The notes beneath the pieces were generated by a model that made no database searches, was not told where the DNA came from, and saw nothing but the letters and a program-made list of their open reading frames with translations. From Escherichia coli (lineage in GTDB: Bacteria; Pseudomonadota; Gammaproteobacteria; Enterobacterales; Enterobacteriaceae): 64,000 nucleotides of DNA. Numbering within the stretch: the first letter of the stretch is position 1; each line of letters opens with the position of its first letter. The stretch lies in the NCBI RefSeq assembly GCF_001677475.2, contig NZ_CP015229.1, one strand, 5' to 3'. A program made the translations under genes and the position numbers. Positions 15,775-22,482 of the stretch are shown piece by piece.

Positions 15775-18787
<3,013 letters not shown>

Positions 18788-19624
18788 ATGGCCGTATTAC
18801 ATAGTGTGGATTTTTTTCCGTCTGGTAACGCGTCCGTGGCGATAGAACCCCGGCTCCCGCAAGCGGATTTTCCTGAACATCATCATGATTTTCATGAAAT
18901 TGTGATTGTTGAACATGGCACGGGTATTCATGTGTTTAATGGGCAGCCCTATACCATCACCGGTGGCACGGTCTGTTTTGTGCGCGACCATGATCGGCAT
19001 CTGTATGAACATACCGATAATCTGTGTCTGACCAATGTGCTATATCGCTCGCCGGATCGATTTCAGTTTCTCGCCGGGCTGAATCAGTTGCTGCCACAAG
19101 AGCAGGATGGGCAGTATCCGTCTCACTGGCGAGTTAACCACAGTGTATTGCAGCAGGTGCGACAGCTGGTTGCACAGATGGAACAGCAGGATGGGGAAAA
19201 TGATTTACCCTCGACCGCCAGTCGCGAGATCTTGTTTATGCAATTACTGCTCTTGCTGCGTAAAAGCAGTTTGCAGGAGAACCTGGAAAACAGCGCATCA
19301 CGTCTCAACTTGCTTCTGGCCTGGCTGGAGGACCATTTTGCCGATGAGGTGAATTGGGATGCTGTGGCGGATCAATTTTCTCTTTCGCTGCGTACGCTAC
19401 ATCGGCAGCTTAAGCAGCAAACGGGACTGACGCCTCAGCGTTACCTGAACCGCCTGCGACTGATGAAAGCCCGACATCTGCTACGCCACAGTGAGGCCAG
19501 CGTTACTGACATCGCCTATCATTGCGGATTCAGCGACAGTAACCACTTTTCGACGCTTTTTCGCCGAGAGTTTAACTGGTCTCCGCGTGATATTCGCCAG
19601 GGACGGGATGGCTTTCTGCAATAA
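18788..19624 (+). CDS. rhaS: AraC-family activator RhaS
   Basis: 278 aa ORF with C-terminal HTH. Confidence 0.9.
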
Positions 19625-19697
19625 CGCGAATCTTCTCAACGTATTTGTACGCCATATTGCGAATAATCAACTTCGTTCTCTGGCCGAGGTAGCCACG

Positions 19698-20546
19698 GTG
19701 GCGCATCAGTTAAAACTTCTCAAAGATGATTTTTTTGCCAGCGACCAGCAGGCAGTCGCTGTGGCTGACCGTTATCCGCAAGATGTCTTTGCCGAACATA
19801 CACATGATTTTTGTGAGCTGGTGATTGTCTGGCGCGGTAATGGTCTGCATGTACTCAACGATCGCCCTTATCGCATTACCCGTGGCGATCTCTTTTACAT
19901 TCATGCTGACGATAAACACTCCTACGCTTCCGTTAACGATCTGGTTTTGCAGAATATTATTTATTGCCCGGAGCGGCTGAAGCTGAATCTTGACTGGCAG
20001 GGGGCGATTCCGGGATTTAGTGCCAGCGCAGGGCAACCACACTGGCGCTTAGGTAGCGTGGGGATGGCGCAGGCGCGGCAGGTTATCGGTCAACTTGAGC
20101 ATGAAAGTAGTCAGCATGTGCCGTTTGCTAACGAAATGGCAGAGTTGCTGTTCGGGCAGTTGGTGATGTTGCTGAATCGCCATCGTTACACCAGCGATTC
20201 GTTGCCGCCAACATCCAGCGAAACATTGCTGGATAAGCTGATTACCCGGCTGGCGGCCAGCCTGAAAAGTCCCTTTGCGCTGGATAAATTTTGTGATGAG
20301 GCATCGTGCAGTGAGCGCGTTTTGCGTCAGCAATTTCGCCAGCAGACTGGCATGACCATCAATCAATATCTGCGGCAGGTCAGAGTGTGTCATGCGCAAT
20401 ATCTTCTCCAGCATAGCCGCCTGTTAATCAGTGATATTTCAACCGAATGTGGCTTTGAAGATAGTAACTATTTTTCGGTGGTGTTTACCCGGGAAACCGG
20501 GATGACGCCCAGCCAGTGGCGTCATCTCAATTCGCAGAAAGATTAA
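19698..20546 (+). CDS. rhaR: AraC-family activator RhaR (GTG start at 19698; upstream in-frame ATG at 19608 would overlap rhaS)
   Basis: ORF in frame from 19491; 282-aa form from [13 protein letters not shown]... Confidence 0.85.
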
Positions 20547-21577
20547 TTCGCCATGCCCATGCCGACGATGTTGGCGGCGACAATAATCACCACACAACCG
20601 AGGCTCAACACCGTTACCGGACGGCGACCTGCATTGTTCCACTCTTTCAGCACCAACCCGACGATACCGCCGCACAATACATAGAAGCTCATATGCAGCA
20701 TCCAGCTGATGTAGTCATACTGCGCCGGAATACGCGCGTGGCCCCAGGCATAGAAAAAGAATTGTAGATACCACATCAACCCGCCCAGTGCTGAGAGTAA
20801 CACATTGTGAATGATCAGCGGTTTTGCCAGCGAGAAGTCGGCTTTTAGCGACAAATCCTTCATTTTTGCCAGACGAATAAAACAGAAACCGAGGTTGATG
20901 ATCGCGCCGCCGCCCATGATGACAACATAGCTTGGCAGAGCGACATACAGTGGATCGACGCCTAGTGCGACAGCGGCTTCATGCATCGGTTTTGCGGCGT
21001 TCATCGCAAAGGACATCCCGGCAGAGAAAATGCCGCACATCACCGCCAGCACCAGCCCTTTTTTCAGATTGAACTCTTCGGCTTTAATGCCCATCTTGCG
21101 CTCTTTCAACTGCCCGGCTCGAGTTACAATCCCTACGCCAATCAGCGCCACCAGAACGCCGAGCAACGTCATGCGTCCGCCTTCGGTATTAATCAGCACA
21201 TCGAAATTGCCGTTGATAATTGGCGTCATCAGCGTACCGACAATCAACGTAATGCCAATGGCGATGCCAATTCCCATCGACATGCCGAGATAACGCATGG
21301 TCAGGCCGTAGTTGATATTACCGATCCCCCACATAGCGCCGAACAGAAAAACAGGCAGCAGCGTAGAGAGACTAAACGAGCTGTAATACGCCCAGAAATT
21401 CGGCAGTAACAGGGCGCTGATGGCCCACGGCAGAATAATCCACGAAACAATCCCACCAACTGACCACATGGTTTCCCATGACCATTTTTTTACTTTTTTG
21501 AACGGAGCGTAAAAACAGGCTGCACTGGCCGCGCCGATCAAATGCCAAAATATCCCCATCGTAATCGCGTTACTCAT
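20543..21577 (-). CDS. rhaT: L-rhamnose-proton symporter
   Basis: 344 aa polytopic membrane ORF. Confidence 0.9.
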
Positions 21578-21861
21578 CTTCTTATCCTCATCATTTTTCG
21601 TCGCGTCACATCTCCGACGAGATGAGTGTAAAAATCGTGCTGTCGATTAACCTTTCGCCTGTTGCCGCCGTTGTCGATTTACTGGCAATCACGGCATTAA
21701 GTGGGTGATTTGCTTCACATCTCGGGCATTTTCCTGCAAAACCATACCCTTACGAAAAGTACGGCATTGATAATCATTTTCAATATCATTTAATTAACTA
21801 TAATGAACCAACTGCTTACGCGGCATTAACAATCGGCCGCCCGACAATACTGGAGATGAAT

Positions 21862-22482
21862 ATGAGCTATACCCTGCCATCCCTGCCGTATGCTTACGAT
21901 GCCCTGGAACCGCACTTCGATAAGCAGACCATGGAAATCCACCACACCAAACACCATCAGACCTACGTCAACAACGCCAACGCGGCGCTGGAAAGCCTGC
22001 CAGAATTTGCCAACCTGCCGGTTGAAGAGCTGATCACCAAACTGGACCAGCTGCCAGCAGACAAGAAAACCGTACTGCGCAACAACGCTGGCGGTCACGC
22101 TAACCACAGCCTGTTCTGGAAAGGTCTGAAAAAAGACACCACCCTGCAGGGTGACCTGAAAGCGGCTATCGAACGTGACTTCGGCTCCGTTGATAACTTC
22201 AAAGCAGAATTTGAAAAAGCGGCAGCTTCCCGCTTTGGTTCCGGCTGGGCATGGCTGGTGCTGAAAGGCGATAAACTGGCGGTGGTTTCTACTGCTAACC
22301 AGGACTCCCCGCTGATGGGTGAAGCTATTTCTGGCGCTTCCGGCTTCCCGATTCTGGGCCTGGATGTGTGGGAACATGCTTACTACCTGAAATTCCAGAA
22401 CCGCCGTCCGGACTACATCAAAGAGTTCTGGAACGTGGTGAACTGGGACGAAGCAGCGGCACGTTTCGCGGCGAAAAAATAA
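21862..22482 (+). CDS. sodA: Manganese superoxide dismutase
   Basis: [36 protein letters not shown]... (206 aa). Confidence 0.95.

Follow-up and report, generated by a model that had tools for sequence, protein, structure and literature searches.

The junction between rhaS and rhaR raises the question of where translation of rhaR begins, and with it whether the two cistrons are coupled. The genes are co-transcribed from psr, and older genetic work numbered RhaR residues on a form of 312 amino acids; how residues are numbered, how expression constructs are designed and whether rhaS and rhaR are regarded as coupled by overlap all depend on the start that is assigned. The junction is considered here in a 64,000 nt stretch of Escherichia coli DNA (contig NZ_CP015229.1), referred to throughout as the window, whose open reading frames identify 17031–22482 as an E. 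coli-type rhamnose regulatory locus.

The rhaS–rhaR locus and its candidate start codons

The expected context, with rhaBAD reading leftwards, rhaS and rhaR reading rightwards and rhaT converging on rhaR, is present both in the ORF list of the window and in the RefSeq annotation of matching loci. The features needed for what follows are these (rhaB, rhaS, rhaT and sodA as given by the ORF list).

17031–18500, minus strand: rhaB
18788–19624, plus strand: rhaS coding sequence, 278 aa, ATG start, TAA stop at 19622–19624
19467–19607, plus strand: stretch open in the rhaR frame within rhaS, containing GTG 19491 and GTG 19587
19608–19697, plus strand: in-frame extension from ATG 19608, 30 codons, the historical 312-aa form
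19625–19697, plus strand: rhaS–rhaR intercistronic spacer, non-coding, 73 nt
19686–19689, plus strand: Shine–Dalgarno (SD) sequence GAGG, 8 nt before GTG 19698
19698–20546, plus strand: rhaR coding sequence, conserved form, 282 aa, GTG start, stop at 20544–20546
20543–21577, minus strand: rhaT
21856–22482: sodA

The NCBIfam RhaS equivalog NF010028 matches residues 1–278 of the 278 in the rhaS product (E = 5e-164), and the gene is supported too by the RefSeq annotation of near-identical E. coli loci. Over the rha region the DNA is 98.0% identical to that of K-12 MG1655, where ATG 19608 and GTG 19698 correspond to 4,098,556 and 4,098,646, and a junction query of 701 nt (19300–20000) found matches in 5,418 of 5,426 complete E. 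coli genomes. At the far end of rhaR there is a 4 nt overlap with the 3′ end of the convergent rhaT (20543–20546).

A sequence-only reading of the window had described the rhaR frame as open from 19491, with an ATG at 19608 overlapping the end of rhaS and a GTG at 19698 giving a product of 282 aa, and in these particulars it was right. The nearest upstream stop in the frame is a TGA at 19464–19466, so that the frame is open already from 19467; the first start-type codon in it is GTG 19491, which would give 351 aa, and a second GTG, at 19587, shares the frame. Initiation at the ATG (19608–19610) would give 312 aa and a 17 nt overlap with rhaS (19608–19624), and the frame from the GTG (19698–19700) to the stop at 20544–20546 encodes 282 aa.

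Conservation of the rhaR start codon and its ribosome-binding site

The comparison set consisted of 38 orthologous rhaS–rhaR loci from about 15 genera. Most were taken from one-genome-per-species contigs (Escherichia, Citrobacter, Kluyvera, Leclercia, Silvania, Buttiauxella, Atlantibacter, Cedecea, Budvicia, Limnobaculum and other Enterobacteriaceae), and Salmonella, Enterobacter, Superficieibacter and one more locus were added by exact-protein look-ups. A start codon is present at the equivalent of 19698 in every one of the 38: GTG in 31, TTG in the four of the Atlantibacter group and, in three Budviciaceae, an ATG displaced downstream by one codon. The sequence-only reading had posed the choice of start as open, and this comparative evidence strongly favours GTG 19698. 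The rhaR start is thus non-ATG (GTG or TTG) in 35 of 38 loci, while that of rhaS is ATG in all 32 loci read for that codon (the window and 31 orthologues). Retention of a non-ATG start in so many loci suggests selection for modest output of RhaR, low relative to RhaS.

All 33 of the Enterobacteriaceae loci that were read for this feature have a G-rich SD sequence a few nucleotides ahead of the conserved start, mostly GAGG, with GGGG, GGAG, GGGA and AGGA as variants. In the window, the predicted pairing of GTG 19698 with the 3′ end of 16S rRNA is −7.2 kcal/mol, which places it in the top 2.5% of the 279 NTG codons of the region; the rhaS ATG has a strong SD (−10.3 kcal/mol). GTG 19491 and GTG 19587 were considered as starts and rejected, as they show no SD-like pairing (+0.4 and −2.4 kcal/mol respectively), are situated inside rhaS and fall outside all of the family models.

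For initiation ATG is the stronger of the two codons, which counts against a GTG start, and ATG 19608 is itself preceded by a G-rich SD-like stretch (AGGGACGGG). Its pairing of −7.8 kcal/mol ranks among the best 2.2% of the region’s NTG codons, although this pairing abuts the codon and so has poor geometry. The pairing, and the fact that ATG 19608 adjoins the rhaS stop, speak for dual initiation, in which most RhaR would be made from GTG 19698 and a minor 312-aa isoform from ATG 19608, in the E. coli lineage only. As a possible route, ribosomes that terminate at the rhaS stop, 14 nt downstream of ATG 19608, would perhaps move back to it. Expression as two isoforms is found elsewhere in the AraC family, in VirF of Shigella. 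What such a scheme predicts for the sequence between the two starts is taken up in the next section.

One observation on gene calling belongs with the start codons. In an Enterobacteriaceae contig (L048, 2501–2509) the called start is an ATG that precedes the conserved GTG by two codons and stands only 1 nt past GAGG, a further case in which preference for ATG has moved a called start.

Lack of conservation of the upstream extension

ATG 19608 arises from the Asp-Gly codons GAT GGC of rhaS, and a homologous ATG appears wherever rhaS has Asp encoded by GAT before a codon that begins with G. This is the case in 11 of 36 loci, and only in the window and in one other Escherichia locus (L003, 95% identical) is the ATG in frame with rhaR and free of an intervening stop. 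In a divergent Escherichia record (L004, 89% identical) the spacer is 1 nt shorter and the homologous ATG is out of frame, and in Salmonella the reading frame from the homologous ATG is two codons long. Outside Escherichia, all but two loci have an in-frame stop 1–25 codons upstream of the conserved start, and the longer open stretch of the remaining two contains only a TTG. Spacer length ranges from 71 to 158 nt, with lengths distributed 16/14/6 modulo 3, and REP-like palindromic insertions are present in the spacers of 14 of 35 orthologous Enterobacteriaceae loci (Salmonella, Citrobacter (amalonaticus), several Buttiauxella and Atlantibacter). As a matter of record, REP-like GC-rich elements occur in L005, L010, L017, L020–L025, L030, L034 and L042, where the spacers are 128–158 nt long. 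Judged from the sequences, the stops, length changes and REP-like insertions are incompatible with an extension that is translated and under selection. Conservation of the upstream extension had been named by the sequence-only reading as a means of deciding the matter, and by that measure the extension shows no conservation of a coding sequence.

The openness of the extension in E. coli carries little weight. If codons are used uniformly, a run without a stop has a probability of 0.32 over the 24 codons of the spacer and of 0.24 over all 30; chance alone would leave such a frame open about once in every three or four cases, and its being open is no evidence of coding. The frame through the extension is uninterrupted in K-12, the window and L003, and essentially all of 5,415 E. 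coli genomes keep it intact. Of 5,417 E. coli genomes, 4,965 share at least 99% identity over the junction, and the sampled variants keep the frame; because the junction is so nearly invariant, the intactness of the extension within the species says little about selection.

These results bear directly on dual initiation. In a functional two-isoform arrangement both starts and the frame between them would be conserved; an in-frame link exists in 2 of 36 loci. The uninterrupted frame in the window, K-12 and L003 is in its favour, but loci beyond the E. coli clade lack the link and the 1 nt indel in L004 breaks it, so that a long isoform, if there is one, would be without conserved function. No experimental report of two forms was found in the accessible literature and, as described below, the N-terminal domain was crystallised without the extension. 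Taking both sides together we consider dual initiation improbable.

They bear also on coupling. The sequence-only reading had held that the choice of start affects coupling between the two activators; it does alter the geometry of the junction, which has a 17 nt overlap with one start and a 73 nt untranslated spacer with the other, but coupling by overlap is unsupported as a conserved mechanism, because the orthologues do not preserve the extension as a coding sequence and the reference annotation, family models and crystallised constructs use the 282-aa form.

Family models, structures and reference annotation

When the 312-aa form was used as a search query, the orthologues from Citrobacter, Salmonella, Enterobacter and others were 282 aa long and covered only 88–90% of it, the 312-aa form being confined to Escherichia clusters. 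The NCBIfam models for RhaR, NF010025 and NF010027, both have 282 positions and nothing in them aligns to the extension. NF010025, an equivalog for this L-rhamnose activator of the AraC/XylS family, gives a whole-protein score of 573.4 bits, above its curated cut-off of 525, and its positions 2–281 of 282 align to residues 71–350 of the open frame, that is, from the codon after GTG 19698. Residue 3 of RhaS, the tandem paralogue, aligns with position 6 of the RhaR profile. The chains of the two structures of the RhaR N-terminal domain (PDB 5U93 and 5U9E) begin at MAHQLKLL, as 5U93 does, or two residues later, corresponding to residues 1 and 3 of the 282-aa form, from which it follows that the domain was crystallised without the extension.

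In RefSeq the K-12 gene (b3906) is 849 nt long and its protein carries the version NP_418342.2; the annotation of the nearest E. coli genome is the same. The version suffix.2 indicates that the 312-aa reading has been replaced in the reference annotation. The alternative rhaR starts are already known from the history of the annotation, in which a length of 312 aa gave way to one of 282 aa, and the current reference contains the answer that the comparative data support. The original 312-aa reading, with ATG 19608 as the sole true start, a 17 nt overlap with rhaS and translational coupling, has the ATG codon and the longer open reading frame to recommend it, and it is the choice of automatic gene callers (cluster P0002: 312 aa, 99% identical, 7,172 member sequences, ENA-type gene calls). 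The comparative, family-model, structural and reference-annotation evidence is all against it, and we regard it as barely credible. The 312-aa E. coli calls are a reminder that the longest ATG-started open reading frame can be wrong.

Longer RhaR-containing products also occur in public collections (P0001, 511 aa; P0019, 535 aa; P0003 and P0004, 397–399 aa); these may be rhaS–rhaR read-through or frameshift fusions, or artefacts of gene calling.

Overall, the GTG start and its SD are conserved, the extension is not, and the reference annotation, family models and solved structures agree with this. In the explanation that we favour, rhaR would be translated independently from GTG 19698 by means of its own SD (GAGG, 19686–19689) to give the 282-residue activator; a 73 nt untranslated spacer would separate the cistrons, leaving rhaS and rhaR uncoupled by overlap; ATG 19608 would be a by-product of the rhaS codons GAT GGC, with a 30-codon extension open in the E. 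coli lineage by chance; and the 312-residue reading would be an over-extension still reproduced by gene calling that prefers ATG and the longest open reading frame. We put the probability of this joint explanation at roughly 0.88, and infer that in E. coli the GTG is the only, or at least the predominant, start used by ribosomes. In the accessible literature on the rhaR start codon, Ribo-RET, TetRP and N-terminal or other proteomic evidence, nothing on the start of rhaR was found.

A conserved motif in the rhaS–rhaR spacer

The spacer, non-coding in the reading just given, holds two further elements.

19625–19647, no strand assigned: bipartite motif, CGCGA (19625–19629), N6, TCAAC (19636–19640), then GTATTTG; weakly CRP-like
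19662–19667, plus strand: −10-like hexamer AATAAT, 29 nt after the motif centre; implied transcription start at about 19674

Across loci the pattern is CGCGA-N6-TCA(C/A)C-GTTTT followed by the hexamer [A/G]ATA[A/C]T. Constraint is clear over the 5′ two-thirds of the spacer, where several blocks are at least 90% conserved when 32 loci are aligned without bias, compared with only about 0.66–0.69 at the third codon positions of the flanking genes. CGCGA begins at the first base past the rhaS stop, or one base later in Buttiauxella and Cedecea, and motif and hexamer occur together at fixed spacing in 32 of 34 Enterobacteriaceae loci, with N6 variable. Mean majority-base frequencies, taken from 17 lineage representatives and to some extent circular, since a pattern was used to place the motifs, are 0.98 for CGCGA, 0.65 for N6, 0.94 for TCAnn, 0.98 for the next five bases, 0.93 for the hexamer and 0.57 for the ten bases after it. 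The right half is the weaker TCAAC in the E. coli, Salmonella and Citrobacter lineage. The REP-like elements lie between the conserved hexamer and the rhaR SD, always at least 13 nt downstream of the hexamer, and as all of them are on this side the distance from hexamer to rhaR start varies from 28 to 114 nt.

A structured RNA element in the spacer could be discounted: the single-sequence fold is no better than that of shuffled sequences (z = 0.12), the consensus fold of 14 junction sequences is negligible (−4.1 kcal/mol, one pair with a compensatory change) and an Rfam search of the junction gave no match at E ≤ 1. The idea that the spacer is a relic of the RhaR half-sites of psr or of the RhaS half-site of PrhaBAD was also rejected; local alignments against each locus’s own rhaB–rhaS intergenic region were no better than shuffles and were inconsistent in position. 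A match of 14 out of 17 between TTCAGTAACGCGAAGGC and rhaI2 is largely due to the Leu-Gln-stop codons of rhaS, its AAGG part is unconserved, and it is at most a weak lead.

In E. coli NCTC9064 (L044, 1440–1560) an IS1 element abuts the spacer at the base equivalent to 19660 of the window, with fdhD beyond the IS1. Here rhaBAD and rhaS are deleted, and the native sequence upstream of rhaR consists only of the hexamer, SD and GTG.

The spacer motif as a possible promoter or regulator binding site

We regard the motif as a conserved element of undescribed role, no description of it having been found in the accessible literature, for which an internal promoter or regulator binding site is the leading guess, and a tentative one. 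Put more fully, motif and hexamer together would form an internal promoter, possibly CRP-assisted in the manner of class II, or else a binding site for a regulator; at present we think this rather doubtful. Class II CRP-dependent promoters, for example galP1, have the CRP site centred near −41.5. Provided that the hexamer is a −10 element, the spacer motif has that placement, its centre lying at −41.5 in 26 of the 32 loci, at −42.5 in five and at −40.5 in one, despite the 28–114 nt range downstream. Also in favour are the invariance of the motif while N6 varies and the position of the REP-like insertions, always downstream of the hexamer. When the block is compared with the rhaB–rhaS intergenic region of its own locus, its best match in Enterobacter, and in Salmonella on the opposite strand, falls at the place taken in the window by the site that scored as the CRP site of rhaBAD (z = 3.2–3.9).

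Against this stands a weak CRP score. With a CRP matrix built from 16 classical sites, the spacer site reaches only 5.5 bits, which ranks it 96th among the 63,979 positions of the window, and 4.7–10.0 bits in the orthologues. The three sites that we take to be the CRP sites of the rha locus score 11.9–14.8 bits and hold ranks 3, 6 and 8. The rhaSR promoter served as an internal control for the matrix; its phylogenetic footprint (18641–18662, 18606–18627 and approximately 18750–18756) comprises a conserved TACTAT −10 element and two CRP-type sites, together with an inverted half-site pair, TAyCTTrAAwwwTCGAC, which is presumably the RhaR site. A simple consensus scan of 19300–19900 for sigma-70 promoters and intrinsic terminators found neither in the E. 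coli sequence, and the weaker right half TCAAC in the E. coli, Salmonella and Citrobacter lineage also counts against the proposal. The accessible parts of the Cappable-seq, CRP SELEX, ChIP-exo and promoter-library literature contained no record of a start site or of CRP binding at the spacer; neither the CRP SELEX main text nor the accessible ChIP-exo supplements gave a match to rhaR, and a promoter library lists only rhaSR.

If the proposal were true, RhaR would be supplied independently of RhaS, on a transcript holding only the GTG start, which would explain the basal RhaR available to start the rhamnose cascade. Conservation of both the non-ATG start and the spacer motif suggests that RhaR output is set independently of RhaS. 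Expression systems based on rhaSR are widely used, and given that use the motif is the only part of the junction possibly worth an experiment.

Comparison with known systems

In overlap-coupled cistrons of the ATGA or TAATG type the downstream start lies at the end of the upstream gene, and a start at ATG 19608, with its 17 nt overlap with rhaS, would give an arrangement of this kind. Unlike such pairs, the conserved rhaR start has its own SD and is situated 71–158 nt beyond the rhaS stop in the orthologues.

Like class II CRP promoters such as galP1, the spacer shows the order nGnGA-N6-TCAnn, T-rich sequence 3′ to it and a −10-like hexamer, with the motif centred at −41.5. It differs from CRP sites in its left half, which is CGCGA and not TGTGA, and in its weak matrix score, and it is at most a candidate member of the class.

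The historical 312-aa RhaR, in the first version of the K-12 protein record, corresponds exactly to the ATG 19608 form, a reading without support from conservation, family models or structures. The closest known system is K-12 RhaR as now annotated (b3906). It is the same gene in the same locus order (rhaB leftwards, rhaS and rhaR rightwards, convergent rhaT, then sodA), with an identical 73 nt spacer and, as in the window, a 282-aa product from GTG; the two proteins differ at few amino acids, for example S/N and V/M in the alignment of the N-terminal domain, and the junction is unchanged.
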